Part shown: positions 2,820 to 43,828 of the stretch, in pieces
How the letters are laid out: each line of letters starts with the position of its first letter
How positions within the stretch are numbered: position 1 is the first letter of the stretch
Assembly (NCBI GenBank): GCA_034002665.1
Contig: JAVFAA010000001.1
Span: 300,748-364,747 of the forward strand
From: Dissulfurispiraceae bacterium
GTDB taxonomy: Bacteria; Nitrospirota; Thermodesulfovibrionia; Thermodesulfovibrionales; Dissulfurispiraceae
Reading direction: 5' to 3'
DNA: 64,000 nucleotides
Made by a program: the position numbers and the translations under genes
The notes under the pieces: generated by a model
Seen by the model: the letters and a program-made list of their open reading frames with translations, nothing else
Databases searched by the model: none
Told to the model about the DNA's origin: nothing

Positions 2820-3231
2820 TTTGGCAAAAGGCTTTGGTCCAAATCAGGTCTCTTATTCATGCTTAATAATCAGGTAGATTATTTTTGTAAATTATAAAGC
2901 CAAAAGAGGCCTAAATTATTTTGAGTCAGAGAAAGACATGATTATAAATCTTAGGCGCTTTTTGTTTGAATTTGATCACCTGGCAAAACACGGAGGTTTG
3001 AATCATGAAACACCGTTTGACTTGTCCGCTGAAGCGGATAAACTCTAAAAAGTTACTGAATTAGTGATCTAATACAACCGTCCTATTTAAACACACATAT
3101 TAGCCTATAAATATAATTAATTCAAAAATATATGTTAAGTAGTGTTTTCATTGCCATGTTCATTTTTTTTTGATAGCATATATGCATGCCGTATAGATAA
3201 TAACTTGCTGGGCAATTTTCGGAGGTGATCG

Positions 3232-3822
3232 ATGGTAAACATTAGACCAATGCAAATTCCCGGACGATGGCGTGCAGGGTACGTGCTGGATTACCACACA
3301 CTTAGCAGCATGTATCTTGGTGATGACGAATACGGCCATGCGATGTTTGACACTAAGAGAAGTGAGGTCGGCGAGTTGTTATACCGCCTCAAGTACCGCT
3401 CGGATAAGAGCGCGCTTAACGAACTTGTTGAGGTCGCAGCAAAATTCGTTCGAGAATGGAATCCCGGGGTGACCATTCTCGTTCCTGTTCCTCCCTCCCG
3501 AGTGCGGGCTGAACAGCCAGTACTCCTCATCGCGGAAAGGCTTGGTGCGTCAATCAGTATTCCCGTTGACCTGAATGGTGTCACTCGAGTCAAGGAGACT
3601 CCCGAGCTTAAGAATGTCTACGCCTACGATGAAAGGCTCTGTCTCCTCGATGGCGTACATAGGGTCGAGGCATCGGTCTTCAAAGGGCAGAAGATTCTCC
3701 TATTCGATGACCTGTATCGGTCAGGGGCTACAATGAACGCCATCACCGGGGCGCTTTATGATGAGGGAGCTGTTGCGGACGTATACGCCCTGGCCCTAAC
3801 TCGAACGCGGAGTAGATCATGA
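3232..3822 (+). CDS. ComF-like phosphoribosyltransferase-domain protein
   Basis: 196 aa with a PRTase PRPP-binding loop (KILLFDDLYRSGATMNA) and an upstream LVPVPPSR motif as in the ComF/GntX family. The region is visibly GC-richer than its flanks. Its stop overlaps the next ORF's start (ATGA at 3819-3822). Confidence 0.6.
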   Translation: MVNIRPMQIPGRWRAGYVLDYHTLSSMYLGDDEYGHAMFDTKRSEVGELLYRLKYRSDKSALNELVEVAAKFVREWNPGVTILVPVPPSRVRAEQPVLLIAERLGASISIPVDLNGVTRVKETPELKNVYAYDERLCLLDGVHRVEASVFKGQKILLFDDLYRSGATMNAITGALYDEGAVADVYALALTRTRSRS

Positions 3823-4367
3823 TCAAGGTATTCATAGGAGGATCTCGGCGAATATCGCGATTGAGCTCGGAAGTCAGGCAGCGAATTGATAGGATCATTG
3901 AACAAGGATTCTCCGTGCTTGTCGGCGATGCCAACGGTGTGGACAAGGCCGTTCAGAAGTATCTCCAATCTCGCGGTTACGAGACGGTCGAGGTGTTCTG
4001 TTCAGATGGGGAATGTCGCAACAATTTAGGGAGGTGGCCGGTTCGGGCTGTAGCCACCGGTCAGGCCCGAAGGGATTTCAACTACTATGCCGCCAAAGAT
4101 GAACAGATGGCTCAGGAAGCTTCCGTGGGTCTTATGATCTGGGATGGAAAGAGCGCAGGAACCCTCGCGAATGCCGCACGCCTCTTGCGCCAACATAAGA
4201 ACGTCCTGGTCTACGCCGCGCCGGCCAAACGGTTCCTCACTTTGAAGGGCAAGGCTGATTGGGAAAGTCTCCTATCTGGGTGTGGGAGGGACGTACGAGA
4301 GAAGGTACTCACAGCTGCGACAGGCCCGCTACGAGAGGCAGGCGATAGGCAGAGGAGTTTGTTCTGA
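3819..4367 (+). CDS. DprA-like / SLOG-type Rossmann-fold protein
   Basis: 182 aa. VFIGGSRR..VLVGDANGVDKAVQKYL..IWDGKSAGTLANAARLL parallels the Rossmann core of the bona fide DprA in this window (ISGMARGIDTAAHEAAL..APNSGSLITASYAL). It is translationally coupled to the PRTase gene. Confidence 0.45.
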   Translation: MIKVFIGGSRRISRLSSEVRQRIDRIIEQGFSVLVGDANGVDKAVQKYLQSRGYETVEVFCSDGECRNNLGRWPVRAVATGQARRDFNYYAAKDEQMAQEASVGLMIWDGKSAGTLANAARLLRQHKNVLVYAAPAKRFLTLKGKADWESLLSGCGRDVREKVLTAATGPLREAGDRQRSLF

Positions 4368-4482
4368 CTGACGGTTGCCCAACAACCGCATTAACTCGGG
4401 CTGGCAATTCCGCTACGCTTCATTGCCATCCGGTTATGCGGAGCGTTGGACAGCAGTAAAATACATTCAAAAGGAGAAGTAA

Positions 4483-4737
4483 ATGAAGGCAATGATGATC
4501 AGTTACATCTTGATTCTGAGCGTAGCAAGATTAGCTTTGGCTAGGGACACAAATCAAAACGAAGCAACATGCAAACAACGAGTAGAGGCTACTTTGGCTG
4601 CTATTTCTACTGTAGAAAATATGACAGGAGATAAGAAGGATATCAAAGGGTTAACCAAAGAAGCCATCGAAAAAATGTTAAAGAGGATGTCATATTGTGA
4701 GGTAGCTCAAGAAATTGCCCATAAAACAATACAATAG
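4483..4737 (+). CDS. Small secreted hypothetical protein
   Basis: 84 aa with an N-terminal hydrophobic signal-like segment (MKAMMISYILILSVARLALA) and an AAGGAGAAG RBS upstream. Confidence 0.5.
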   Translation: MKAMMISYILILSVARLALARDTNQNEATCKQRVEATLAAISTVENMTGDKKDIKGLTKEAIEKMLKRMSYCEVAQEIAHKTIQ

Positions 4738-4837
4738 AACAGAAATCCGTATGAATAATTTGAATTAGAAGGTTTTTATATCAGTAACAAACATATCAGA
4801 CGAACCAATTTTTTACAGCAAAGGAGGAGGAGTTTAT

Positions 4838-5269
4838 ATGAAGAAAATTTTTCTGTATGTCATGATGGTGTCAATATTGGCAGGAAACGTTTCAGCCGAT
4901 GAAATCGGCAAACAAAGAAATGAAGAAGGCAACATGAAGGTCCCTGTCTACCAGTTTCTTGCAGGTTTCGATTTTCCTTCGATGCAGCAGGTTATTTCTA
5001 GAAAATATATTTCAACTAATATACCTAAAAATGCTCAATGGATACCCAATAACTATGGCATGGCCCACGAAATAAAGATCACTAAAGTAGCCCCTCCGTA
5101 CGTATATGCAGAGACGACCTTCTATAGCTATGTAGGGGTCAACCGGCATTCCTATAAATTCGAAGTCCGTAAAGAAGATAACAATTACTATCTTGTCCCC
5201 TCAAAGAACGCATACCAAAGCGGGATGCTTTTCGTTGAGCCTTGGGTTGAGGCAAAAACCTTACAATAA
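4838..5269 (+). CDS. Secreted hypothetical protein
   Basis: 143 aa with a signal-peptide-like N-terminus (MKKIFLYVMMVSILAGNVSA) and a strong AAGGAGGAGG RBS. Confidence 0.55.
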   Translation: MKKIFLYVMMVSILAGNVSADEIGKQRNEEGNMKVPVYQFLAGFDFPSMQQVISRKYISTNIPKNAQWIPNNYGMAHEIKITKVAPPYVYAETTFYSYVGVNRHSYKFEVRKEDNNYYLVPSKNAYQSGMLFVEPWVEAKTLQ

Positions 5270-5361
5270 TACCTCCAAGACGGTCCAACTAGCGGCACGA
5301 CCAGTCTGCCCAGAAAACCCGAGCTGGCTGGTCAGCCTTATGGCGTTAGTTTTCGACTGGG

Positions 5362-5410
5362 TTTAAATGCGACGGTTCTATTTAAGGACTTTAAATTCTT
5401 CCCATTTAAA
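5362..5410. repeat. Short imperfect palindrome sharing the TTTAAATG(C/G)GACGGTTCTAT / CCCATTTAAA motif
   Basis: TTTAAATGCGACGGTTCTAT at 5362-5381 faces TTCTTCCCATTTAAA ending at 5410. The same termini occur at 6298-6420. Confidence 0.5.
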
Positions 5411-5676
5411 TAAATATAGCGCTAGGCTTTGCAGAAATATATGAAGATGATACATCAACTAAACATCAATGGCGACTTACAGAAGCAGGAAAGCAAAAAA
5501 TGTATTTCCTGTTGGCGCAGAAATCGTAAGAAAATGTGTCAATGCCTACGGCCAGTAAATGATGATGGACAGTTGCTAGTATAAGACTTTCATAACGAGC
5601 CGTTCGAGCCGCCTATGGCGGCTCAACTCGTCGTTGACCGCAATAAAGAATCGGCCGTCGAGATAGAGGAGGTTTT

Positions 5677-6198
5677 ATGAAGAAAATATATTTTTCACTA
5701 TTTGTCGTCGCATCCTTTGTAACATTCACATTGACAGAAGCACATGCGCAAGCACTGCAAGCGACCTTAAAGTTCGGCCTTTCAATGGGGCATACGTCAG
5801 AGCCACAACCCGTTCTGATTGTCACTCCATATCAGAACTACAAAAATTGCTTCGCAGTGGGGACCGGATCGCTATCCGGCGATAGGTTACAAGTCAGTTT
5901 ACAAACAATGACTTGTGGTGACGATCATTACTTTTATCAATTCGATGTAACTGATGCAGTCGTATCAGATGGTACCGGGAATAAGGGTATCCAAGCTAAA
6001 CATTACCCACCAAGCAAAGAGCTACTCGACTCCGTAAAAGGGCTCAAAGATCTATATGGTCGCATTGGATATTCTGAAGGCTTAAAGCTTATAAGTAACG
6101 CCGAGATGGGGCATTGGGTCGTAGAGCCAGGTACACATGTCCTGGTGAACTTCCACGGACAATCGGGATTCACGCGAAAAATCAGCGTTCACGATTAA
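5677..6198 (+). CDS. Secreted hypothetical protein
   Basis: 173 aa with a signal peptide (MKKIYFSLFVVASFVTFTLTEAHA) and a GAGGAGG RBS. Confidence 0.55.
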   Translation: MKKIYFSLFVVASFVTFTLTEAHAQALQATLKFGLSMGHTSEPQPVLIVTPYQNYKNCFAVGTGSLSGDRLQVSLQTMTCGDDHYFYQFDVTDAVVSDGTGNKGIQAKHYPPSKELLDSVKGLKDLYGRIGYSEGLKLISNAEMGHWVVEPGTHVLVNFHGQSGFTRKISVHD

Positions 6199-6297
6199 TG
6201 CGAAACGCTTAGGAGCACACTCGGTTCAATAGAGGAGGTTATATTATGATTTACTTTAGACCTAATCAGGTGATAGGTCCCCGTGACTTTGGGGACG

Positions 6298-6420
6298 TTT
6301 AAAGGGACGGTTCTATACATAAATGTTTTTACCACTACAACGGCATAGGCAGCACAGTGGTGGTGATGGACATGAACAGGGATATTGAAAATGAAATTAA
6401 ATAGAACCGTCCCATTTAAA
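6298..6420. repeat. MITE-like element bounded by ~20-bp inverted repeats
   Basis: TTTAAAGGGACGGTTCTAT (6298-6316) faces ATAGAACCGTCCCATTTAAA (6401-6420). The reverse complements match apart from one indel. The termini relate to 5362-5410. Confidence 0.5.
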
Positions 6421-6548
6421 TTATTAAATTAAATAAATAAATATTTGCGAGTGGAGGTCTTGTCTCTGGCATAATCCAGTTGTTGACTCATACATATAAA
6501 TGAGGCATATTAATACATATGATTTAGCATATATGTGGGGAGATTCTT

Positions 6549-6746
6549 ATGAGGACAACATTGATTATCGATGATGAGCTGCTTAAAAAGGCATCAAAAC
6601 TTACAGGCATCAAGGAAAAGACTTCGATCGTGAGGCTCGGGCTGGAGGCTCTTATAGCAAGGGAAAGCGCCAGGAGGCTCGCGCTGCTTGGAGGCACGCA
6701 GAAGAAGCTTGAAGATATTCCCAGAAGAAGGTCAGAGAAGGCTTGA
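6549..6746 (+). CDS. vapB: Type II antitoxin, VapB family
   Basis: 65 aa. MRTTLIIDDELLKKASKLTGIKEKTSIVRLGLEALI is typical of VapB/ribbon-helix-helix-like antitoxins. It lies directly upstream of a PIN gene. Confidence 0.8.
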   Translation: MRTTLIIDDELLKKASKLTGIKEKTSIVRLGLEALIARESARRLALLGGTQKKLEDIPRRRSEKA

Positions 6747-6747
6747 G

Positions 6748-7113
6748 ATGGTTCTTGTTGATACTTCTGTCTGGATAGCTCATTTTCGCAATAACTCCCC
6801 TGAGCTCGCGGCCTTGTTGAATGACGGATATGTCGCATGCCACAAGGCTGTCATAGGCGAACTGGCTTGCGGGAATCTGAAAAACAAGGACGAAATATTG
6901 TCTCTGCTCGGCGCGCTTCCAATGGTTCAGGAGGTAGAAGATGATGAGCTGCTTCAGTTTATCGAAAACTTCAGCTTGATGAGTAAGGGGCTGGGATACA
7001 TTGATATGCATTTGCTCGCATCAGCTGTTATGGAGAAGATGCCTCTATGGACTCTTGATAAAAGACTTGATGAGACAAGCAGGAAACTTGGCGTGAGATA
7101 TACAAAAGGCTAA
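6748..7113 (+). CDS. vapC: Type II toxin, PIN-domain ribonuclease VapC
   Basis: The ATG at 6748 lies 1 nt after the vapB stop. MVLVDTSVWIAHFR carries the first PIN acidic residue motif, and the product is about 121 aa. The longer track ORF from 6688 overlaps vapB and is unlikely. Confidence 0.85.
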   Translation: MVLVDTSVWIAHFRNNSPELAALLNDGYVACHKAVIGELACGNLKNKDEILSLLGALPMVQEVEDDELLQFIENFSLMSKGLGYIDMHLLASAVMEKMPLWTLDKRLDETSRKLGVRYTKG

Positions 7114-7114
7114 A

Positions 7115-8326
7115 CTAAACTGGTTTTATCTTTGCGAATTTTCTCTTGCCGGCTTTGATTATATATTCACCTTTTACAAGCTTTGCATCAGGATTGTCCA
7201 CTTTCTTTTCATCAACAGATACTCCGCCCTGTTTTATAAGACGCATTGCCTCGCCCGTGCCCTGCACAAGTCCGGCAAGCTTCATTATTTTGGGCAGCCA
7301 TATCTCTGCTTCATCCCAAAGCAATTCGAATACAGGGATATCTTCAGGCCTGCCCCTGTCCTTGAACACATGGTCAAACTCTTCTTTTGCATGGAGCGCT
7401 GCGTCTTTTGTTGAATAGCGTTCTGATATTTCTAATGCAAGGTCTTCTTTTGCTTTTTTCGGATGCACCGTACTGTTCTTCAATCCTTCTTTAAGCAAGT
7501 TCAGATCATCAAGGCTGATATGGCTCAAAAGCTCATAATACTTTATCATCAGCTCATCGGATATGGACATCATCTTTCCGTAAATATCTTTCGGCTCTTC
7601 TGATATGCCAATATAATTGCCAAGGCTCTTTGACATCTTCTTCACGCCATCAAGCCCCTCAAGCAGCGGCATCATCAAAATAATCTGAGGCTCCTGGCCA
7701 AACTCCTCCTGCAGCTCCCTGCCCATAAGCAGATTAAACCGTTGATCCGTGCCGCCGAGTTCAATATCTGATTTGAGGGCAACAGAGTCATACCCCTGAA
7801 ATAACGGGTAACTGAATTCATGTATGCTTATGGGGCTCTGATTGGCAAATCTCTGCTTAAAGTCCTCTCTTTCGAGCATCCTCGCCACAGTCTGTTTTGC
7901 CTGGAGTTTTATGATGTCTATCGGCGTCAGCTTCATAAGCCATTCGCTGTTAAAGCGCACTTCTGTCTTCTCCGGGTCGAGTATCTTGAAAACCTGTGCC
8001 TTATAAGTCTCAGCATTGTCAGATATCTCCTGCTGAGTAAGCGGCTTTCTTATGTCTGATCTGCCTGTGGGGTCGCCTATCATGCCTGTAAGGTCGCCTA
8101 TCAGAAAGATTACTGTATGTCCAAGCTCCTGAAACTGGCGCATCTTTTCGAGCAGCACTGTATGGCCGAGATGTATGTCAGGAGCAGTAGGATCAAATCC
8201 TGCCTTTACGCGCAGGGGTGTGTTTGTCTTACAGGACTTTTCGAGTTTTTTCAGGAGCTCTTTTTCAGGAATGATCTCTGAGGCTCCTCTCTTTATTATT
8301 GCGAGCTGTTTTTCTGGTGCGAGCAT
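7115..8326 (-). CDS. tyrS: Tyrosine--tRNA ligase
   Basis: 403 aa with class I HIGH (DIHLGH) and KMSKS (KKMSKSLGN) motifs, plus a C-terminal S4-like domain. Confidence 0.95.
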
Positions 8327-34217: not shown

Positions 34218-34321
34218 GACAGATATAATAACATCCGGCTCACAAAACAGCATAAGAATGTATTGCCAATCAGCATGTTTAAGAGTAAAATTAGGACATT
34301 GCCGCGATACTTACGACTCTT

Positions 34322-35290
34322 ATGACACATCATGATAAATTTAAACGCGTGCTCTGGTTTGACAGCCAGGTAAAACACCAAAGGCATCCCAATGCAGGTA
34401 ATATTGCTGCACACTTTGAGGTGTCTTTAAGAACCGCACAAAGAGATATTGGTTATCTCAGAGATGATCTTAACGCTCCGCTGCATTTTAACCGGTCAAA
34501 AAACGGCTACTGCTACACTGATGAGACCTTTTCACTCCCTGCCTGCTGGCTTAATGAAGACAATGTAATAGCCCTCGCTCTGTCTGCCAGGCTCGCCTCA
34601 ACAATCCCTGATAAAGAGATAAAAAATGATCTCTCAGGAATAATACAAAGAGTCCTCTGCATATTCAGCAGCGCAACAGGGCTTAACACTGAGGCGCTCT
34701 CAGAAAAGGTTTCAGTAAAAAATGTAGAGTACGCAGCTATTGACGAACAAATATTTCATGCAGTAGTAAAAGCATTGTTCGATGCCTGCCCGATCAGCAT
34801 AACCTATTACTCGCCGCACAAAAACCAGACAACAGAGCGTACCATAATGCCGCTCCATCTGATGCACTATATGGGCAGCTGGCATCTCATAGCCTTCTGC
34901 TCATCCAGAAAAGATCTGCGTAATTTCAGCATATCCAGAATAAAATCCATACAGTTGTCAGACAGGATAATAAAAGTTCCTAAATCCATTGGTTCAATAA
35001 AAAACTATATACGAAGGCACTTTGGCATAATGCAGGGCGGTAGAACGCAAAATGTAAGATTAAAAATATCATCATCCATAGCAGCTTGGGTGAGTGAGCA
35101 GATATGGCACCCTGAGCAGAAGATGACATACTCAAAAGACGGCTCAATCGAACTTTCATTGCCTGTCGGTGATTTCAGAGAAATAAGACGCCGCATCCTG
35201 AGCTACGGTGCTGATATAGAAGTGCTGGAACCCAGAGAACTCAAAAAGGACATTAAAAACGAGATCTTGAGGATGGCTAAAAATATTTAG
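34322..35290 (+). CDS. HTH + WYL-domain transcriptional regulator
   Basis: 322 aa with an N-terminal HTH (IAAHFEVSLRTAQRDIGYLR) and a central WYL-type domain (ITYYSPHKNQTTERTIMPLHLMHYMGSWHLIAFCSSRKDLRNFSISRI). Confidence 0.8.
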   Translation: MTHHDKFKRVLWFDSQVKHQRHPNAGNIAAHFEVSLRTAQRDIGYLRDDLNAPLHFNRSKNGYCYTDETFSLPACWLNEDNVIALALSARLASTIPDKEIKNDLSGIIQRVLCIFSSATGLNTEALSEKVSVKNVEYAAIDEQIFHAVVKALFDACPISITYYSPHKNQTTERTIMPLHLMHYMGSWHLIAFCSSRKDLRNFSISRIKSIQLSDRIIKVPKSIGSIKNYIRRHFGIMQGGRTQNVRLKISSSIAAWVSEQIWHPEQKMTYSKDGSIELSLPVGDFREIRRRILSYGADIEVLEPRELKKDIKNEILRMAKNI

Positions 35291-35327
35291 CTGCCCTGAC
35301 ATAAAATGTCATAGTGGATGTGATAGG
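35248..35327. repeat. Direct repeat copy 1 (3' end of the WYL gene plus 37 bp downstream)
   Basis: 80 bp aligning without gaps to 36467-36546. About 70/80 positions are identical by manual alignment. Confidence 0.8.
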
Positions 35328-35418
35328 ATTTTAGTTAAAGAACCGTTTGCCGCAGTTTGAGCTTGTTGTTAGCAGACGAGCATTAATAAGAAATGTTTCT
35401 AAAATAACGAGGTTAAAT

Positions 35419-35748
35419 ATGGATACACATCTTGCAGTATTTAAAGGCAGACAGATAAGGCGGACACTTCACAATAATGAATGGTGGTTTTCGGTTGCTG
35501 ACATTGTGGAAGCTTTGACCGACACCAGAAACGCGACAGATTACATCAAGAAAATACGTCTTCGTGATGAGGAGTTAGCCAAAGGGTGGGGACAAATTGT
35601 CACCCTCCTTTCAATGGAAACATCTGGTGGCAGGCAAAAGATTAACTGTGCCAATACCGAGGGTGTCTTCCGAATAATCCAGTCTGTGCCATTACCTAAA
35701 GCGGTCTTTGATCTTACGTTGGCTATTCATGGAAGGAGAACATTATGA
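35419..35748 (+). CDS. Bro-N domain protein (short/truncated)
   Basis: [49 protein letters not shown] matches the Bro-N pattern. The ATG at 35419 has an upstream GAGG. Its stop overlaps the next gene's start (ATGA). Confidence 0.6.
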
Positions 35749-36260
35749 CTACCACGCTTCCTACTGAGGTCATCGAGAAAAAGATACTCCTCATCCGGGA
35801 AGAAAAAGTCATGCTCGATGCCGACCTTGCAGAGTTATACGGGGTAGAGACCAAAATGCTCGTCAGAGCAGTTAAGAGGAATGCCGAGCGCTTCCCGGCA
35901 GACTTCATGATCCAGCTCGATATGAACGAGTTCGACAACTTGAGGTTCCAATTTGGCACCTCAAGCCGCTGGGGTGGCCGCCGGTATCTTCCGTATGCCT
36001 TTACCGAACAAGGAGTTGCCATGCTCTCCAGTGTCCTGAACAGCAAGCGCGCCGTGCAGGTGAACATAGAGATCATGCGTGCATTTGTGAAGCTCCGACA
36101 AATGCTCTCGTCCAATGCAGAACTGGCGCGCAGGCTCAATACGCTCGAAAAGAAATACGACTCCCAGTTCAAGGCAGTCTTTGACGCGATCCGGCAGCTC
36201 ATGATACCTCCGGAGCCGAAGAAAAAGAAAATCGGCTTTAAACGTGAGGTTGAAGAATGA
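35745..36260 (+). CDS. ORF6N (KilA-N-related) domain protein
   Basis: 171 aa. [60 protein letters not shown] is the typical ORF6N signature. The gene is GC-richer than its flanks. Confidence 0.8.
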
Positions 36261-36466
36261 GACCAGTCTATAAGAGCAGCAAAGTGACCGGCACTGCACA
36301 GAAAGACCTTGAAAAAAAGACCGGTAAAAAGGTTGTTTCTTCAGAGAACTATTTGACTGAGACGGAAAGGCTGAAGAGGATAGAGAGAAAGAAGTAGTGA
36401 ATAACTGCTCAAGCAGTATAGCGGTTTAAACGGATTAAGTAGTTTAAGCTTGTTTTTAGTAAGAGA

Positions 36467-36546
36467 GGACATTGAAAACGAGATTTTAAAGATGGCTAAA
36501 AATATTTAACAGCCCTGACATAAATTGGCATAGTGGGTGTGGTAGG
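36467..36546. repeat. Direct repeat copy 2 (relic WYL-gene 3' end, about 100 bp upstream of cas12a)
   Basis: It encodes ..DIENEILKMAKNI-stop, versus DIKNEILRMAKNI-stop in the intact gene. It aligns to 35248-35327. Confidence 0.8.
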
Positions 36547-36647
36547 CTGGAAGAGATGAGGTGGAGATGAATGAAAAAAGCAGCAGAACTAAAGCCTAAC
36601 AAGTTTTAGCTGATCAATATATCTTATATAGTAAAAGGAGATAACGC

Positions 36648-39600
36648 ATGGATAACAAGGGGCTTTTTGACAATTTTACAAATCAGTACCAAGTTTCAAA
36701 AACGCTTCGTTTTGAGCTTAAACCACAGGGTAAAACAGCAGAAACTATTAAAGCAAAAGGTTTTTTGGATAGGGACTATAAAAGAGCAGAAGATTATAAG
36801 AGAGCAAAAAAACTTATTGATGAATACCATAAGGACTTTATAGAAAAGGCACTTTCTGATAAAAAGTTATCCAGCCTTGAACAATATTATGAAGAATATA
36901 CGAGTTTGATGTCTAAGCCCATTGGAGAAAGAGATTCAAAAAAATTCGCTGGTATTAACGATGCTATGCGTAAGGAGATTGGAGAATGGCTGAAAGATAA
37001 CCCTCTGAAAGACGAAAAAAAGCTAATTCAGGAAATAGTTCCTGAGTTTTTAAGAAACCAGGGGAGAGATGAAGATGCAGAGGTGTTGTTAAGTTTTAAG
37101 GGGTTTACAACATATTTTAAAGGCTTTAATGAAAATAGAGAAAATATCTATACAAATAAAGAACAGTCAACTGCTATTGCATATAGGATTGTTGATGAAA
37201 ATCTGCCAAGATTTGTAGCAAATCTTTATACCTTTAATGATCGTTTAAGAAATCACCAGATCGACTTTTCAGAAGTTGAAAGTCTGATTGAGACAGAATT
37301 TAGTGGCGCTAAATTGGAAGATGTTTTTACTATCGCATATTTCAATTATTGTCTTACTCAAAAAGGAATTGACCGCTACAATGCTGTAATCGGCGGTAAA
37401 ACTGATTTCAACGGGAAGAAAATTCAAGGAATAAATGAAAAAATAAATCTTTTTAGACAGAGAGAAAAACTATCTCCTAAACAGGCTCCACTTTTAACCG
37501 TGCTTTATAAACAGATATTGAGTGATAGAGTAAGTCTTTCTTTTTTACCTGAAAAGTTCAAATCAGCAAATGAATTGGTTGCCGCAATAAGAGATTTTTA
37601 TTCAGAAGGCATTAATGGGTTTATAAAAGATGGACAAAAAAGTAATGTGATGGATGAAATAGAGAACCTATTTGCCAAAAAACTTAATCCTAATGATTGC
37701 GATCTATCTAAAGTTCATCTACAAAGCAGTTTTTTAACTGTTCTTTCGCATCAGTTGTTTGGAGATTTTAGTGTAATCAAAGATGCATTAAACGCATATA
37801 TTGAAAGTACATTCAAAACTAAAAAGGAAAAAGAAAAACAGAACAAAAGAAGATACTACACCATTGAGGAAATTGAGGCAGCATTAAAACAATATGTTCA
37901 GGATACAGAAATTGATAACAAACAAAAGACAAAAGAAATTTTAGATCAGGCAAATCCAATTATATATTATCTCAATGCACTTGTTAACAATGTCGAGATA
38001 GATGGCAAAAAACAGAAAGTCAATATTATTGCACATTTCAGAAGCCTGCAAGAAAATATACACAATGTTCTTGATAAAGATTATCGGTCTAATAGTGAAC
38101 TCCTTAGTGACAAAGGACATATCGCTGCAATTAAGAATTATCTTGACAGCTATAATGTTGTACTGCATTTTATCAAAGCGCTTTCTGTTCCGTCTGTCGC
38201 AGACAAAGAGATGGATCTTGTTGAAAAAGATGCACTCTACGCTGAATTTGAGGAGTTGTTATCACAACTTCAACTCGTTGTGCCGCTTTATAACAAAGTA
38301 CGAAACTTTATAACTCAAAAGCCATATTCAGTAGAAAAGTATAAATTGAACTTTGATAATGTCACTCTGCTTGATGGTTGGGATGTTAACAAAGAATCTG
38401 ATAATACATGTGTTATTCTGTGTAAAGACAGCTGCTACTATTTGGCTATTATGGATAAAAAACATAGCAGTATTTTTCGGGACATCAAGAGCACTGCTGA
38501 TGATGTGGAATGTTACGAAAAAATGTTTTACAAGTTATTGCCGGGTCCAAATAAAATGCTGCCAAAGGTGTTTTTTTCTAGCAGCAGGATTGAAGAATTT
38601 GCGCCATCTGCAGAGCTGCTAAATAAATATAAGGCTGGCACTCATAAAAAAGGAGATAATTTCTTACTCAGCGACTGTCATGCCCTTATTGATTTCTTCA
38701 AATCATCAATAGCTAAACATGAAGATTGGAAACAATTCAATTTTGATTTCTCTCCTACCAGTGCCTACCGTGACATTAGCGATTTTTACAAAGAGGTAGC
38801 ACACCAAGGATATAAGATCACTTTTAATAGGGTATCTGCCAAATATGTGGATCAGCTTGTTGCTGAAGGCAAATTATATCTCTTTCAAATTTATAATAAA
38901 GACTTTTCAGCTTATAGCAAGGGCAAACCAAGCCTATATACTCTTTATTGGAAAGCTGTTTTTGATCCTGAAAACCTCCAAGATGTTGTTGTCAAACTAA
39001 ATGGTGAGGCAGAGGTCTTTTTCAGACAAGCATCAATACCAGAAGGGCTAAAAACAGTGCATCCAGAAAACATACCTATCGACAACAAAAGCCCCTATAA
39101 TCCCAAGAAGCAGAGCGTATTTAAATACAAAATCATTAAAGATAAGAGATACACTGAGGATAAGTTTGCTTTTCATGTGTCTATAACGCTTAATTTTAAA
39201 GCAGGAGATGAGTACAAATTCAACGACAGGGTTAAGCAGGCTATAGGCGAATTGCCTGTTGATGATTTAAGGATAATAGGCATAGACAGGGGGGAGAGGC
39301 ATCTTGCTTACTATTCACTTATCAATTCTAAAGGAGAGATACTCAAACAAGATTCATTTAACATTATTGAGAATGAGGTTAAAGGCGCTAAATACAGAAC
39401 CGACTACCATGCAAGTCTTGTTGCCAGAGAAGAAGAAAGAGATAAAAATAGAAAGTCCTGGGGTGCGATCGAAACAATCAAAGAGCTTAAAGAGGGGTAT
39501 CTCTCACAGGTTGTGCATAAAATCGCTAAGTTGATGATTGAGCATAATGCTGTTGTTGCTCTCGAAGACCTCAACTTTGGGTTTAAACGCGGCAGAATGA

Positions 39601-40445
39601 AGGTTGAACGACAAGTGTATCAGAAGCTCGAAAAGATGCTGATAGACAAGCTGAACTACCTCGTCTTCAAGGATAGAGAGCATAGAAATAAAGGGGGCAT
39701 TTTAAATGCCTACCAGCTTGCAAATAAATTTGATAGTTTCAAAGCAATAGGTAAACAGACCGGATTTCTCTTTTATGTGCCTGCTGCTAATACCAGTAAA
39801 ATAGATTTTGCTACCGGATTTGTAAACCTTTTATACCCTAAATATGAAAACGAAAAACAGGCTAAGGATTTCTTCAGCAAATTTAAGGGCATAAAGTATA
39901 ATTCTGGTAAAGACTATTTTGAATTTAAAATTGATTACAACAGTGTGAGAACTAATGGTGCAGAGAGTTTGAAAAACAGCATATGGACAATCTGTACCAT
40001 TGGAAAAGAACGGTTTCAGTATTATCCAACAACAAAAGAATACAAGAGTGTTGATGTTACCACTGAGATTAAGTCGTTGCTTTCAAATAAGGGTATAGAA
40101 TTTGAAATCGGTAAAGATATACAAGACAGCATTGTAAATTTGGGCGACACGAAGCTCTACAAAAATCTTGTTTTTTACCTTAAACTTGTTTTGCAAATGA
40201 GATACACAGATGGTCAGGGCAGGGATTTTATACTTTCTCCGGTTGCAAATGCTGATGGAAATTTCTTCTGTTCTGAAAAAGCTTTAAACGCCGAACCAAA
40301 AGATGCAGATGCAAATGGAGCGTATCATATTGCTTTGAAGGGCTTACTGCTTATGCACAAAATTAAAAATGGTGAGAGCAAACTGGCTATAAGCAATAAG
40401 GAATGGTATGACTTTGTTCAGGATAAGGCATATAAATCTAAATAA
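36648..40445 (+). CDS. cas12a: CRISPR-associated endonuclease Cas12a (Cpf1), type V-A effector
   Basis: 1265 aa with a hallmark N-terminus FTNQYQVSKTLRFELKPQGKT. RuvC-I is IGIDRGERHLAY (Asp codon 39285-39287). A bridge-helix-like segment reads WGAIETIKELKEGYLSQVVHKI. RuvC-II is VALEDLNFGFK (Glu codon 39564-39566) and RuvC-III is DADANGAYHIALKG (from 40302). There is no HNH motif. An AAGGAG RBS lies upstream. Confidence 0.97.
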   Translation: MDNKGLFDNFTNQYQVSKTLRFELKPQGKTAETIKAKGFLDRDYKRAEDYKRAKKLIDEYHKDFIEKALSDKKLSSLEQYYEEYTSLMSKPIGERDSKKFAGINDAMRKEIGEWLKDNPLKDEKKLIQEIVPEFLRNQGRDEDAEVLLSFKGFTTYFKGFNENRENIYTNKEQSTAIAYRIVDENLPRFVANLYTFNDRLRNHQIDFSEVESLIETEFSGAKLEDVFTIAYFNYCLTQKGIDRYNAVIGGKTDFNGKKIQGINEKINLFRQREKLSPKQAPLLTVLYKQILSDRVSLSFLPEKFKSANELVAAIRDFYSEGINGFIKDGQKSNVMDEIENLFAKKLNPNDCDLSKVHLQSSFLTVLSHQLFGDFSVIKDALNAYIESTFKTKKEKEKQNKRRYYTIEEIEAALKQYVQDTEIDNKQKTKEILDQANPIIYYLNALVNNVEIDGKKQKVNIIAHFRSLQENIHNVLDKDYRSNSELLSDKGHIAAIKNYLDSYNVVLHFIKALSVPSVADKEMDLVEKDALYAEFEELLSQLQLVVPLYNKVRNFITQKPYSVEKYKLNFDNVTLLDGWDVNKESDNTCVILCKDSCYYLAIMDKKHSSIFRDIKSTADDVECYEKMFYKLLPGPNKMLPKVFFSSSRIEEFAPSAELLNKYKAGTHKKGDNFLLSDCHALIDFFKSSIAKHEDWKQFNFDFSPTSAYRDISDFYKEVAHQGYKITFNRVSAKYVDQLVAEGKLYLFQIYNKDFSAYSKGKPSLYTLYWKAVFDPENLQDVVVKLNGEAEVFFRQASIPEGLKTVHPENIPIDNKSPYNPKKQSVFKYKIIKDKRYTEDKFAFHVSITLNFKAGDEYKFNDRVKQAIGELPVDDLRIIGIDRGERHLAYYSLINSKGEILKQDSFNIIENEVKGAKYRTDYHASLVAREEERDKNRKSWGAIETIKELKEGYLSQVVHKIAKLMIEHNAVVALEDLNFGFKRGRMKVERQVYQKLEKMLIDKLNYLVFKDREHRNKGGILNAYQLANKFDSFKAIGKQTGFLFYVPAANTSKIDFATGFVNLLYPKYENEKQAKDFFSKFKGIKYNSGKDYFEFKIDYNSVRTNGAESLKNSIWTICTIGKERFQYYPTTKEYKSVDVTTEIKSLLSNKGIEFEIGKDIQDSIVNLGDTKLYKNLVFYLKLVLQMRYTDGQGRDFILSPVANADGNFFCSEKALNAEPKDADANGAYHIALKGLLLMHKIKNGESKLAISNKEWYDFVQDKAYKSK

Positions 40446-41002
40446 TGGAGAGTTACATACCGATATCGTTTTTGAATGATTATATATTTTGCCCGAGGTC
40501 AATATATTTTCATCAGCTGTATGGCAAGCTTGACACACAGCTATACCAGCAAAAGCCTCAAATATCTGGCAAGGCAGCACACGCTGCAATTGATGGCAAA
40601 ACATACTCAACGCGCAGAAATATATTACAAGGTGTTGAGATATATTCAGAGCGTTACGGAATATGCGGCAAAATAGACACTTTTGATGTTGATATCGGAA
40701 AACTGGTCGAAAGAAAACGGCAGATAAAGACTATTTATGATGGATATATATTTCAGGTTTATGCTCAATATCATGCACTTGTTGAGATGGGATATAAGGT
40801 TAAAACTATAGATCTGTATGATATAAGCCATAACAAAAGCCATGCTGTTGCACTGCCGGAATCATGCCCTGAAATGCAGCAGAAGTTTGAAGAGCTTATA
40901 GATAAAATTAACCGATTTGACATGTATGCATCTGATTTTTGCCCTAATCAGTCAAAGTGCAGCAATTGTATATACTCAAACCTTTGTGATTATGGATTAT
41001 GA
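40445..41002 (+). CDS. cas4: CRISPR-associated exonuclease Cas4
   Basis: 185 aa with an N-terminal Cys (YIFCPRS), a RecB-like D..ExK motif (GKIDTFD..LVERKRQ) and a C-terminal CxxxxxCxxCxxxxxC cluster (CPNQSKCSNCIYSNLC). It overlaps the cas12a stop by 1 nt. Confidence 0.9.
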   Translation: MESYIPISFLNDYIFCPRSIYFHQLYGKLDTQLYQQKPQISGKAAHAAIDGKTYSTRRNILQGVEIYSERYGICGKIDTFDVDIGKLVERKRQIKTIYDGYIFQVYAQYHALVEMGYKVKTIDLYDISHNKSHAVALPESCPEMQQKFEELIDKINRFDMYASDFCPNQSKCSNCIYSNLCDYGL

Positions 41003-41964
41003 TGAGTCTGCCTGACTTTAGAGAAAAGAATATAGTCATCTGCTTTGCTTCTGAAGGGCAGAAGGTGTCATTCAAGAACGATAATCTTGTCATTAAAGAT
41101 GCTGAAGAGCAGATTGTTTTGCAAACAACCTGTCACAAAATCTTCTCTTTGTGGCTTGCGGGCAATATATCCCTAACATCAGGAATTTTGGAGAAGAGTA
41201 AGAAATTTGGATTTTCGATCTATATGCTATCAAACAGCTGCAGGCCATATGGATTATGGAGCAGCGCTACTGAGGGTAACTTTGTATTGCGCAAAAAACA
41301 ATATGACTATTCAGAATTGGATATAGCAAGACATCTGGTAAATAATAAAATATTTAATCAGACCGAACTGCTTAGAAGCATCCGTAATAAGCAAAATATA
41401 ACAAAGACAGCCATTGGTCAAATGTTGAAATATGCAGAAATGGCAGTTGAGGCAGAAGATCTGCATCAGCTTCTTGGCATTGAGGGAGTATCTTCCCGTC
41501 TGTTTTTCAGCAATTGGTTTGTGGATATGCCCTGGACAGGCAGAAAACCAAGAGCAAAGATGGATATTATCAATACTACGCTGGATATTGGCTATACATA
41601 TCTATTCAATTTTGTTGAATGCTTGCTAAATCTGTATGGCTTTGATTTGTATAAAGGGGTTTATCATCAATCTTTTTATCAAAGGAAATCTCTGGTTTGC
41701 GATATTGTTGAGCCGTTCAGATGCATTATTGATAAGCAGGTTAAACGAGCATATGGTTTAAAACAGCTCCAACCGGATGACTTTAGGCAGCAAAAAGGTC
41801 AATTTTTTTTAAAGATAGAAAAGAACAAAGATTATACACGCTGGCTTATACAAAATATTCTTGAACACAAAGAATATATCTTTAGTTATGTTCAAGACTA
41901 TTATCGTTGTTTTATGCGAGACAAGACGATTGACCAGTATCCTGTTTTCAGGATAAAAGATTAG
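40999..41964 (+). CDS. cas1: CRISPR-associated endonuclease Cas1
   Basis: 321 aa with a Cas1-like C-terminal half (LLGIEGVSSRLFF.., NTTLDIGYTYLFN.., GVYHQSFYQRKSLVCDIVEPFR). It has a 4-nt overlap with cas4. Confidence 0.93.
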   Translation: MMSLPDFREKNIVICFASEGQKVSFKNDNLVIKDAEEQIVLQTTCHKIFSLWLAGNISLTSGILEKSKKFGFSIYMLSNSCRPYGLWSSATEGNFVLRKKQYDYSELDIARHLVNNKIFNQTELLRSIRNKQNITKTAIGQMLKYAEMAVEAEDLHQLLGIEGVSSRLFFSNWFVDMPWTGRKPRAKMDIINTTLDIGYTYLFNFVECLLNLYGFDLYKGVYHQSFYQRKSLVCDIVEPFRCIIDKQVKRAYGLKQLQPDDFRQQKGQFFLKIEKNKDYTRWLIQNILEHKEYIFSYVQDYYRCFMRDKTIDQYPVFRIKD

Positions 41965-41973
41965 ATTGTTTTT

Positions 41974-42246
41974 ATGCTTCTTATTTCTTATGATATATCT
42001 GATAACAAATTGCGGACTGAATTTTCCAAATATCTGAAAAAGTTTGGTGGAAGGCTGCAATACTCGGTCTTTGAAATCAGAAACAGCGAAAGGGTGCTTG
42101 AGAATATCACAACGCACATTACGCACTATTTTGAGAAAAAGTTTTCTCAAACTGACAGCATAATGATCTTTAGGCTTAGCAAGCAGTGCAAGATTACCCG
42201 CTTTGGTTATGCAAAAAATGACGAGACCGATCTTTTGATTGTCTGA
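41974..42246 (+). CDS. cas2: CRISPR-associated endoribonuclease Cas2
   Basis: 90 aa. MLLISYDISDNKLRTEFSKYLKKFGGRLQYSVFEI is the typical Cas2 N-terminus. Confidence 0.9.
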   Translation: MLLISYDISDNKLRTEFSKYLKKFGGRLQYSVFEIRNSERVLENITTHITHYFEKKFSQTDSIMIFRLSKQCKITRFGYAKNDETDLLIV

Positions 42247-42383
42247 TCTGCAAACCTCAGTCTTAATGTTTTAAAAGGTGCTTTTAATGGCTGCAAACCA
42301 GTACAAAAAACATAAAGTGTCAAAAAATATGTCAGAAAACCTGAGTTTTTCTGCAAAAAATGGGTGCTTTTTAGACAACACCT
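42247..42383 (+). promoter_or_regulatory. CRISPR leader
   Basis: 137-bp A/T-rich noncoding stretch between the cas2 stop and the first repeat. It contains repeated CTGCAAA motifs (42248, 42291, 42351). Confidence 0.5.
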
Positions 42384-43566
42384 GCCTAAAGCACCTAATG
42401 AATTTCTACTATCGTAGATTCTGCTGGTTATCAGCTTGACAGTCGCAGCCTAAAGCACCTAATGAATTTCTACTATCGTAGATGGTTTATTCATTAAGTA
42501 GCTTGCAATCAAAGCCTAAAGCACCTAATGAATTTCTACTATCGTAGATTCCTTTGTTGCCACCTCGCTGAATTCGAGCCTAAAGCACCTAATGAATTTC
42601 TACTATCGTAGATTCTATCGGCTGCCCAAAGGTAGTAACCCCGCCTAAAGCACCTAATGAATTTCTACTATCGTAGATCTTACTACCGGGAGGGGAACGC
42701 TTGCATTAGGCCTAAAGCACCTAATGAATTTCTACTATCGTAGATGAATTTGAGGACTGGCAGACAGTCGCGCCTAAAGCACCTAATGAATTTCTACTAT
42801 CGTAGATTAAATGTGCTATGTGCCCATATTCGTATGCCTAAAGCACCTAATGAATTTCTACTATCGTAGATCTCTTGGGGTTGTATATTTTTCCCGGAGC
42901 CTAAAGCACCTAATGAATTTCTACTATCGTAGATCGCTAAGTGCATGCGTTGCACTGATGGCCTAAAGCACCTAATGAATTTCTACTATCGTAGATAACT
43001 TGATCATGTGATCCCGCTCAACGCCTAAAGCACCTAATGAATTTCTACTATCGTAGATAATTTGATGCGTTTCTTTAACTGGCCGCCTAAAGCACCTAAT
43101 GAATTTCTACTATCGTAGATTTCTCCTGCTGTTGTTCATCAGGTTTCTTTGCCTAAAGCACCTAATGAATTTCTACTATCGTAGATTTGCTGGCTAATTA
43201 CAAGCTTAGGAGGAGCCTAAAGCACCTAATGAATTTCTACTATCGTAGATCGCTAAGTGCATGCGTTGCACTGATGGCCTAAAGCACCTAATGAATTTCT
43301 ACTATCGTAGATAACTTGATCATGTGATCCCGCTCAACGCCTAAAGCACCTAATGAATTTCTACTATCGTAGATAATTTGATGCGTTTCTTTAACTGGCC
43401 GCCTAAAGCACCTAATGAATTTCTACTATCGTAGATTTCTCCTGCTGTTGTTCATCAGGTTTCTTTGCCTAAAGCACCTAATGAATTTCTACTATCGTAG
43501 ATTTGCTGGCTAATTACAAGCTTAGGAGGAGCCTAAAGCACCTAATGAATTTCTACTATTGTAGAT
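42384..43566 (+). CRISPR. Type V-A CRISPR array, 19 repeats / 18 spacers (13 unique)
   Basis: The 36-nt repeat GCCTAAAGCACCTAATGAATTTCTACTATCGTAGAT starts at 42384, 42448, 42514, 42578, 42643, 42710, 42772, 42836, 42899, 42961, 43023, 43085, 43151, 43215, 43277, 43339, 43401, 43467 and 43531. Spacers are 26-31 nt. The last repeat has one C>T change at 43560. Confidence 0.98.
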
Positions 43567-43660: not shown

Positions 43661-43828
43661 ATGCCTGCTTATGAGTATGAGTGCAAGGAATGCAAAAAGG
43701 TTTTTATGGTCTTTTTCTCCCTCAAGGAGTTTGATTCAAATCCAAGAATCAAGTGCCCTCACTGCGAAAGCGATAATACTGTGAGAAGAATATCAGGATT
43801 TTTCGCTAAAACCAGCAAAAAATCATAG
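43661..43828 (+). CDS. FmdB-family zinc-ribbon protein
   Basis: 55 aa, below the track cutoff. MPAYEYECKECKKVF..KCPHCES is the typical CxxC..CxxC putative regulatory zinc ribbon. An AAGGAGG RBS lies at 43648-43654. Confidence 0.7.
   Translation: MPAYEYECKECKKVFMVFFSLKEFDSNPRIKCPHCESDNTVRRISGFFAKTSKKS

Follow-up and report, generated by a model that had tools for sequence, protein, structure and literature searches.

What occupies the space between a WYL-domain regulator gene and cas12a in a bacterial CRISPR locus, and why is it bracketed by two copies of the regulator gene's own end? This question is raised by a stretch of 64,000 nucleotides (nt) from a Dissulfurispiraceae bacterium (assembly GCA_034002665.1, contig JAVFAA010000001.1), here called the window. 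A preliminary description of this DNA read the arrangement as the footprint of an integrative element that had targeted the 3' end of the regulator gene and had left three coupled genes behind. The analysis reported here points instead to a slot for accessory genes that is linked to the regulator, and we give this reading, as opposed to an integrative-element scar, a probability of roughly 0.6. The window genome (G000) was compared with a sister species of the same genus (G002) and with another genome of that genus (G001); the remaining G and L labels denote comparison genomes and fetched loci or contigs. The features on which the argument depends are the following.

34322-35290, plus strand: WYL regulator gene, stop codon included (helix-turn-helix (HTH), WYL and WCX domains, a BrxR/CapW-like architecture; Pfam, PADLOC).
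35247-35327, plus strand: repeat copy A (R), resident-type, made up of 44 nt from the end of the WYL gene and the 37 nt 3' of it.
35298-35329, plus strand: candidate operator and extended -10 element ("WYL box"), GACATAAAATGTCATAGTGGATGTGATAGGAT, by motif match.
35328-35418, plus strand: leader of the embedded gene, with a 39-nt insertion relative to G002 (alignment to G002).
35419-35748, plus strand: 5' remnant of a Bro-N/DinD-C gene, a 109-residue open reading frame (ORF) matching PDC-S13 positions 5-100 of 286 (E 7e-30).
35704-36295, plus strand: incoming GC-rich segment of ~590 bp that appears to have replaced ~440 bp of the host gene (identity to G002 ~45-55% there).
35745-36260, plus strand: complete ORF6N gene of 171 residues, PADLOC candidate PDC-S05 (Pfam, PADLOC).
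36257-36397, plus strand: 3' remnant (tail), an open 46-codon ORF matching PDC-S13 positions 240-275 of 286 (E 1.7e-5).
36398-36465, plus strand: conserved 3' untranslated stretch of the cassette with reiterated (A/G)GTTTAA(A/G)C-like words, 91% identical to G002.
36466-36546, plus strand: repeat copy B (R'), cassette-type, a relic of the WYL 3' end plus the box.
36517-36548, plus strand: second candidate operator and extended -10 element, the presumed cas12a promoter, by motif match.
36648-40445, plus strand: cas12a (Pfam RuvC_1, REC1, NUC, PI and REC2).

The two repeat copies align without gaps over 81 nt, with 71 identical positions (88%) and a spacing of 1219 nt. At the local match probability of 0.26, the binomial tail for at least 71 matches in 81 is 5e-31 per comparison, and the chance over all position pairs in the window is about 1e-21. 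The duplication of the WYL 3' end, as first described, is thus well above background. Its left boundary is sharp and lies at AGGACATT. Copy B ends 101 nt upstream of cas12a and still encodes the regulator's C-terminus in frame (..EDIENEILKMAKNI-stop), as had also been noticed. The corresponding pair in G002 is 85 nt long, its members being 99% identical to each other. Which of the two window copies belongs to the insert? Identity to the G002 repeat is 89% for copy B and 83% for copy A, and by inspection copy B agrees with the G002 repeat at 7 of the 10 sites where the window copies differ. Copy B is the closer one along its whole length, as would be expected if it came with the cassette and copy A was resident. 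The repeat pattern was present in G000 and G002 only among 68 family genomes, a BLAST-type search of 317 genomes of the order gave no further copy, and a metagenome scan returned a single contig, identical to the window. Two small differences follow the copies: the 39-nt stretch at 35330-35368, right after copy A, has no counterpart in G002, and the trailing sequence is swapped between the genomes, GGAAGAG(A/G)TGAGG standing after copy B in the window and after copy A in G002.

What lies between the copies? The preliminary description had correctly listed three translationally coupled ORFs: two ATGA overlaps link them, and Pfam identifies the first as Bro-N and the second as ORF6N. These ORFs had been taken for one three-gene cargo, a view replaced here by a nested structure, in which a Bro-N/DinD-C gene has had its middle replaced by an ORF6N gene. 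The comparison with G002 was decisive. The order there is WYL, repeat, an intact 275-residue Bro-N gene, repeat, and then type I-C cas genes rather than cas12a. For the intact G002 protein, the match to PDC-S13 is full-length (positions 5-274, E 3.5e-112). No single window protein spans this profile, and positions 5-100 and 240-275 fall on two ORFs. The profile phrog_15286 (274 positions) is divided likewise, with positions 6-113 on the Bro-N ORF and 241-266 on the 46-residue ORF, which aligns with the C-terminus of the G002 protein (..KDLEKKTGKKVVSAENYL..). Because both profiles are split over the two ORFs and the G002 copy is intact, the Bro-N ORF and the 46-codon ORF are, on these alignments, the two ends of one 275-residue gene. 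The Bro-N ORF has an E value of 1e-10 against PF02498 and 42.4 bits, compared with a gathering cut-off of 25.6 and with 57.8 bits for the intact G002 protein.

The host protein combines, according to the profiles, an N-terminal Bro-N DNA-binding domain with a helical C-terminal module as in E. coli DinD. In an AlphaFold2 model of the intact protein, the Bro-N domain alone was confident (mean predicted local distance difference test score of the model 62; C-terminal module 31-74), and no relative was found by sequence in the PDB. Homologues of the host gene number in the thousands, at 77-85% amino acid identity and across phyla, and some pipelines name them "DNA-damage-inducible protein D". The 3' untranslated stretch of the cassette is better conserved relative to G002 than the synonymous sites of the gene. 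Its reiterated words, of the types GTTTAAAC / GTTTAAGC / GTTTGAAC, lie at 36410-36455, and a longer run of such words was seen in G027 (L019, about 5770-5890, minus strand), beside the box that precedes PDC-S22.

How did an ORF6N gene come to lie inside another gene? The window is orthologous to the G002 gene up to about 35703 and again from about 36296; positions 35704-35748, although read as part of the Bro-N ORF, arrived with the ORF6N segment. The ORF6N protein matches PF10543 over positions 1-86 of 86 (E 4.8e-35, 120.2 bits compared with a cut-off of 27.8) and PDC-S05 over its full length (PDLC04869, E 3.5e-59; PDLC04856, positions 6-175 of 177, E 2.6e-57). Its homologues of ~170 residues are found in the thousands at 75-92% amino acid identity across phyla including archaea, with the same C-terminal ending. 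Longer database entries were considered as fusions of ORF6N with the tail and proved to be N-terminal over-extensions. In an unrelated WYL/cas locus (L037, whose cas3 is most type I-C-like), ORF6N occupies the same position; the block 35722-36260 is 92.8% identical to that locus, and the Bro-N and tail parts are 63-70% identical. Because of this mosaic, with an ORF6N block near L037 and Bro-N and tail parts near G002, we conclude that the ORF6N segment entered a resident G002-like gene, most simply via recombination in the gene's conserved ends. The central ~440 bp were thereby swapped for the ~590-bp ORF6N segment, and what is left of the gene is a 5' remnant of 109 codons and a 3' remnant of 46 codons, both ATGA-coupled to the invader. 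All three ORFs had been described as GC-richer than their surroundings. This holds only for the ORF6N part (GC 0.49-0.535) and not for the Bro-N part, which at 0.41-0.46 lies within the range of the WYL gene (0.37-0.47); cas12a has values of 0.29-0.38.

The split architecture recurs in other lineages. Loci L037-L040 show the order WYL, Bro-N remnant and ORF6N, followed in L037 by the tail and then by cas3 and cas5; L041 holds two copies and G191 one. The remnants decay in these loci and ORF6N stays intact: an in-frame stop is found in L041, a frameshifted tail in L037 and an 81-residue stub in G191. The two ORF6N modules of L041 are 300-nt repeats with 89-96% identity. We infer that ORF6N is the sole product still under selection. 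The window genome has a second ORF6N gene, embedded in a type I restriction-modification operon with the order hsdM-ORF6N-Fic-hsdS. It lies outside the window (L099, G000:C1:388000-398000, at 3185-7814), and its start overlaps the end of hsdM. In G191, three families of 86-94-nt direct repeats with 89-92% identity were observed (L075, G191:C14, 1673-5260). They surround ORF6N cassettes and a Schlafen/AlbA_2-HATPase gene; two of the families include a TATAAT resembling a promoter element, a ribosome-binding site and the opening codons of the gene downstream, and the third contains an ORF6N 3' end.

Does the cassette share the history of its flanks? Nucleotide identity between the window and G002 is 92% in the Bro-N part, 85% in the tail and 91% in the 3' untranslated stretch, compared with 78% in WYL and 72-75% in other flanking genes. 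Synonymous divergence (dS) is 0.33 in the Bro-N part and 0.47 in the tail, compared with 0.97 in WYL and with 1.15 and 1.94 in upstream genes. Because the dS of the cassette is far below that of the flanks, the cassette has, by this measure, its own horizontal history. Both gene families are very conserved, circulate horizontally and settle inside defence operons.

What, then, does the repeat do? Its right half fits the pattern GACA-N5-TGNCA-N12-TAnnnT, in which two half-sites stand 5 bp apart and an extended -10 element (TGnTAnnnT) follows 12 bp on. Exactly two matches occur in the window, one per copy, where 0.07 are expected. A sigma-70 scan at copy B gave TTAACA-17-CATAGT with TG at 36506-36534. 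The box of copy A is the sole perfect palindrome among the copies (TGACAT-AAA-ATGTCA). WYL orthologues of five genera carry the box motif at their 3' end, and in G019, G017 and G033 its position falls between 12 nt ahead of and 19 nt past the stop codon of the orthologue. The box is still present in G019, where the WYL gene directly abuts type I-E cas3/cse1 with nothing inserted. A series is found in G027, in the order WYL, box, PDC-S02, box, PDC-S22, box, cas3g (one degenerate box-like copy and two matches to the pattern). The box also lies upstream of PDC-S13 genes in G137 and G216, the G216 contig having no WYL gene upstream of it. In L041 (GCA_964392915.1, 5690-10935), a 46-nt repeat of this architecture, likewise promoter/operator-like, occurs four times, each time ahead of one unit. 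These units are, in order, a Bro-N remnant with ORF6N, a 45-residue tail and a RhuM/Fic gene; a Cas3-like helicase; a second remnant with ORF6N and tail; and cas3.

A precedent is available in BrxR, a WYL regulator of defence islands. The inverted repeats that it binds are separated by 5 bp and form two boxes in each island (PMC9122601). Because the box is conserved at WYL gene ends and reiterated before units, and because of the BrxR precedent, R is read as a putative promoter/operator under WYL control. The 81-nt repeat probably holds the regulator's promoter, copied once for the embedded gene and once for cas12a; the WYL protein would bind the box and co-regulate the cassette and cas12a. 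According to this reading, a control region for whatever lies downstream would be carried at the very end of the WYL gene. In this genus the unit of the last 44 nt of WYL plus box exists in two copies, one of which would drive the embedded gene and the other the cas operon. Any duplication of a box placed on the regulator gene's end would carry that end with it. We infer that the insertion of the cassette produced the duplication, through recombination at the box or the gene end. Three origins are compatible with the data: a circular cassette bearing one junction copy may have been inserted by a single crossover, two WYL-headed units may have been fused, or a recombinase may have acted in trans.

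Could the repeats instead be attL and attR? A small cassette, served by a recombinase in trans, would then have integrated at the WYL 3' end with a replacement copy of that end. The repeat boundaries are the same in two species whose flanks have a dS of at least 1, and the cassette is much less diverged. Copy B being cassette-type throughout and copy A resident-type, the pair fits one crossover located at the repeat's right edge. Members of the family are bracketed by direct repeats elsewhere too. In L051 the 3' end of a methyltransferase gene is duplicated (82 nt at 99% plus 48 nt at 90%), in L057 a 46-nt pair at 91% duplicates the 5' end of a truncated MmeI-like gene, and L047 has a weaker pair (61 nt at 74%). 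Relic copies of the methyltransferase end occur in arrays, like those at tRNA integration sites.

However, these repeats are locus-specific, so that there is no common att site, and the repeat of the window is found in no other genome of the order. No integrase or transposase was recognisable in the cassette or in the ORF list for 30-46 kb, of which not all ORFs were profile-scanned. Even at a site without an insert (G019), the right half of the repeat is kept as a promoter-like box, and most embedded copies have no repeats at all. Bracketing by repeats was considered as a rule for embedded genes and is refuted by the RhuM gene of G002, by L027, by L034-L036 and by most copies in the order. 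The preliminary description had held that the same genes in a context without flanking repeats would speak against its proposal: they occur so in L037-L039, between WYL and cas3, but the G002 copy is flanked by repeats of 99% identity. What survives of the proposed footprint is an insertion bracketed by a duplicated gene end and with a horizontal history of its own, as the dS values indicate; the integrative element itself does not, given the lack of a recognisable integrase in the ORF list for 30-46 kb and the promoter-like right half. Compared with islands that target gene 3' ends, the locus is alike in that direct repeats duplicating an upstream gene end bracket horizontally acquired DNA. 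It differs in having no recognisable recombinase gene, a cargo of only ~1.1 kb, a repeat that is locus-specific and coincides with a promoter box, and a structure common to two species. On balance, integration of this kind is unlikely.

The methyltransferase end in L051 deserves a separate remark. The duplicated segments (L051, G218:C11, 1291-1453 and 2367-2499) comprise the last ~130 nt of the DNA methyltransferase gene (..QILTAKKKDPNADTSALEKQIDEMVYALYGLTPEEIAIVEG). This segment is present in multiple 80-95% identical copies per genome in one bacterial family, sometimes in short arrays, the rest of the gene being unrepeated. Defence cassettes may use it repeatedly, as a junction or as a handle for recombination.

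Might copy B be the relic of a second regulator? A head-to-tail fusion of two units, one with WYL, box and Bro-N gene and the other with WYL', box and cas operon, would produce the observed order if WYL' had since been deleted down to its last 44 nt and box. The open frame for the last 14 codons and stop in copy B is what such a relic would keep, and WYL with its box heads cas operons of types I-C, I-E, I-G/U and V-A, which could be portable heads. The cas operon behind the repeat also differs between the species (V-A in G000, I-C in G002), so whole units have been exchanged at this place. Against a deleted regulator stand the lack of any WYL-like trace upstream of copy B, where the boundary is sharp and the same in both species, and the G027 series, whose boxes come without a WYL coding relic. 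The 99% identity of the G002 copies would in addition require recent gene conversion. We regard this origin as quite improbable.

Do the embedded genes act against the CRISPR system? The preliminary description had called the Bro-N and ORF6N domains typical antirepressors of phages and mobile elements, and had suggested an anti-defence or Aca-like role. In this explanation, the proteins would be antirepressors or Aca-like switches that turn cas12a expression off or on, or the ORF6N segment would be an element-borne "knock-out cassette" that disables the Bro-N/DinD-C defence gene of the host through homologous replacement. PHROGs does label distant relatives of both domains as antirepressors, the module sits exactly at the junction of regulator and effector, and in several lineages an ORF6N segment that is still 93% identical has taken the place of one and the same part of host genes that have themselves diverged. 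Yet the full-length Bro-N/DinD-C family is almost missing from phages and plasmids, with occurrences in 4 of 50,697 phage records and in 13 of 72,556 plasmids, and its contexts are chromosomal defence operons, which is at odds with the earlier characterisation. ORF6N genes are likewise oriented and coupled in intact type I restriction-modification operons, the one in this genome among them, and PADLOC lists them as defence candidates. The module has no acr-like small gene next to it, and cas12a, cas4, cas1, cas2 and the array are intact. An Aca-like or anti-CRISPR role has no support. Sabotage of the system is therefore very improbable.

The contexts of the family point to defence operons of several types. 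Of the six closest homologues of the host gene that were looked up, five are located within cas operons of types I-C and I-E or next to them. In type I-C they stand either between cas3 and cas4 or between cas7 and cas4, in type I-E between cas6e and cas1, and one homologue neighbours cas2 and cas1 fragments. The embedded genes described here may act in defence or its regulation. A search of the literature gave no paper linking Bro-N, DinD or ORF6N genes to CRISPR loci, and the main text of a survey of CRISPR-linked genes leaves these genes unmentioned. In two type I-E loci of different lineages (L034, 6001-7436; L036, 6001-7434), a Bro-N/DinD-C gene followed by a gene for a 197-198-residue protein was seen between cas6e and cas1. 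One of the two 197-198-residue proteins has a weak 23S_rRNA_IVP match, and the pair may be a recurrent two-gene insert.

Several observations weigh against a regulator-linked slot as described here. The insertion event is reconstructed rather than seen, because an isogenic empty site (WYL, a single R, cas12a) was found neither in the 317 order genomes nor in the metagenome scan; in G019, WYL abuts cas3 without interruption, but that WYL protein shares just 51% identity. The repeat starts 44 nt within the WYL gene, farther upstream than the box requires. Copy B and the G002 copies have one or two mismatches to the palindrome. Among the short words and the spaced pattern, significance was reached by the longer spaced pattern only: AGGACATT was found 4 times (2.5 expected) and TGACAT-N3-ATGTCA with at most two mismatches 3 times (3.9 expected), neither of which is significant. 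Both remnants, of 109 and 46 residues, are still open in the window and could be functional. Linkage to CRISPR is not general, since only ~5 of ~28 full-length copies across the order lie near cas1 or an array. Finally, PDC-S13 and PDC-S05 are candidates by embedding alone (PADLOC-DB v2).

The slot reading can be carried further. WYL plus box could be a portable "docking head", behind which embedded candidates (Bro-N/DinD-C, ORF6N, PDC-S02, PDC-S22) and whole cas operons of different types would be gained, lost and swapped by recombination at the reiterated box or gene-end repeats, all under one infection-sensing switch, with ORF6N as a homing-like invader that would repeatedly replace the effector part of Bro-N/DinD-C genes via their conserved ends. 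This extension is tentative, possible rather than probable.

How does the locus compare with known systems? PDC candidates are "guilt-by-embedding" predictions whose definition drew on BREX, DISARM and type I restriction-modification systems (Payne et al. 2024, bioRxiv 10.1101/2024.01.29.577857). As with PADLOC's embedded candidates, the genes considered here are nested, co-oriented and often translationally coupled in multi-gene defence operons. The hosts differ, being V-A, I-C and I-E cas loci (CRISPR-Cas is missing from the text of that paper), and the present case is unlike the embedded candidates also in that one candidate is nested in another and each unit has its own regulator-linked promoter box. 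The likeness to BrxR and CapW (Picton et al. 2022, PMC9122601; Luyten et al. 2022, PMC9122589) lies in a protein of HTH, WYL and WCX domains at the head of a defence locus. Like their R-boxes, the candidate boxes consist of two half-sites 5 bp apart beside a -10 element, and more than one appears to be present per island. BrxR boxes stand upstream of brxR and repress brxR together with the system, whereas the candidate box here lies at or over the regulator's 3' end and is reiterated before downstream units. In the way they would work, the units resemble integron cassette arrays without being a member of that class: promoter-dependent cassettes stand in series at a fixed slot beside a conserved gene, and the reiterated junctions could be recombination handles. 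Unlike integrons, there is no intI and no attC fold, and each cassette brings a promoter copy instead of using a single Pc.

The link to DinD concerns the C-terminal module. E. coli DinD, as summarised in PMC4457935, which cites Uranga et al. 2011, is an SOS-induced inhibitor of RecA filaments. Its residues 122-250 match the PDC-S13 model PDLC04920 (E 2e-16), and both proteins have about 275 residues. Its N-terminus matches a PDC-S05 (ORF6N-group) model (E 5e-29), unlike the Bro-N head of the host protein. Because DinD matches PDC-S05 at its N-terminus and PDC-S13 at its C-terminus, one C-terminal module appears to be paired with either a Bro-N or an ORF6N-like head. That shared module is the part deleted from the window gene. 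As a direct homologue DinD was rejected: pairwise BLASTP gave E 0.49, and the connection is by profile and for the C-terminal module only. NCBIfam gave no match. In E. coli K-12, dinD lies between yicC and yicG with no defence gene annotated adjacent.

The remaining features concern the locus as a whole. The WYL protein has Pfam E values of 1.5e-19 (WYL) and 2.2e-17 (WCX), HTH_11 being under the cut-off, and matches the PADLOC entry "WYL, CAS associated signalling" at 2.8e-38; it thus qualifies as a regulator of BrxR/CapW-type architecture that heads a defence locus. Its G002 orthologue shares 77% amino acid identity, the same chromosomal site and the same upstream genes. Downstream of cas12a, the ORF list gives cas4, cas1 and cas2, followed by an array up to 43566, a complete set for a type V-A CRISPR-Cas system. 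One further feature encloses all of these.

34284-43530, no strand: variable island (WYL, cassette and type V-A locus), missing from G001.

In G001 (contig C116), homology to the window ends at 34283 and is followed by a solo, degenerate Cas12a-type repeat, GCCTAAAGCACCTAATGAATTTCTGTTGTGGTGGAT, identical at 31 of 36 positions to the terminal repeat of the window array. The stretch of G001 concerned (L107 = G001:C116, 739-960), which corresponds to window 34284-43566, has this repeat between a KAS gene and a 55-residue zinc-ribbon gene, the latter being the counterpart of window 43661-43828. By comparison with the window, the solo repeat is a deletion scar of a former V-A array. Because G001 keeps it between the same flanking genes, type V-A was probably ancestral in the genus and has since been lost from G001. 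The same slot thus holds V-A in the window, I-C in G002 and only a solo repeat in G001.

Embedded defence candidates and WYL-regulated defence loci were known before; what is notable here is the replacement of a gene from within a gene and the reiteration of a regulator box. Earlier predictions of new defences made use of genes found inside restriction-modification, BREX, DISARM and Hma systems, and the same candidates are now seen nested in CRISPR-cas loci. The conserved box at the WYL gene end and before nested units predicts that Cas12a and its passengers would be co-regulated by one sensor. The locus suggests a simple route for the exchange of accessory genes and of whole cas operons at a fixed chromosomal slot, and it documents turnover among the passengers: in unrelated lineages, one candidate gene has supplanted the interior of another at the same position. 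The understanding of Cas12a itself is unchanged by these findings. In G002, the type I-C system behind the repeat (L015 = G002:C35, 1443-10244, minus strand) consists of cas5, cas8c, cas7, cas3, cas4, cas1, cas2 and a 19-repeat array, and its operon holds an embedded gene of its own, a RhuM-family gene between cas4 and cas1 that overlaps cas1 by 4 nt.

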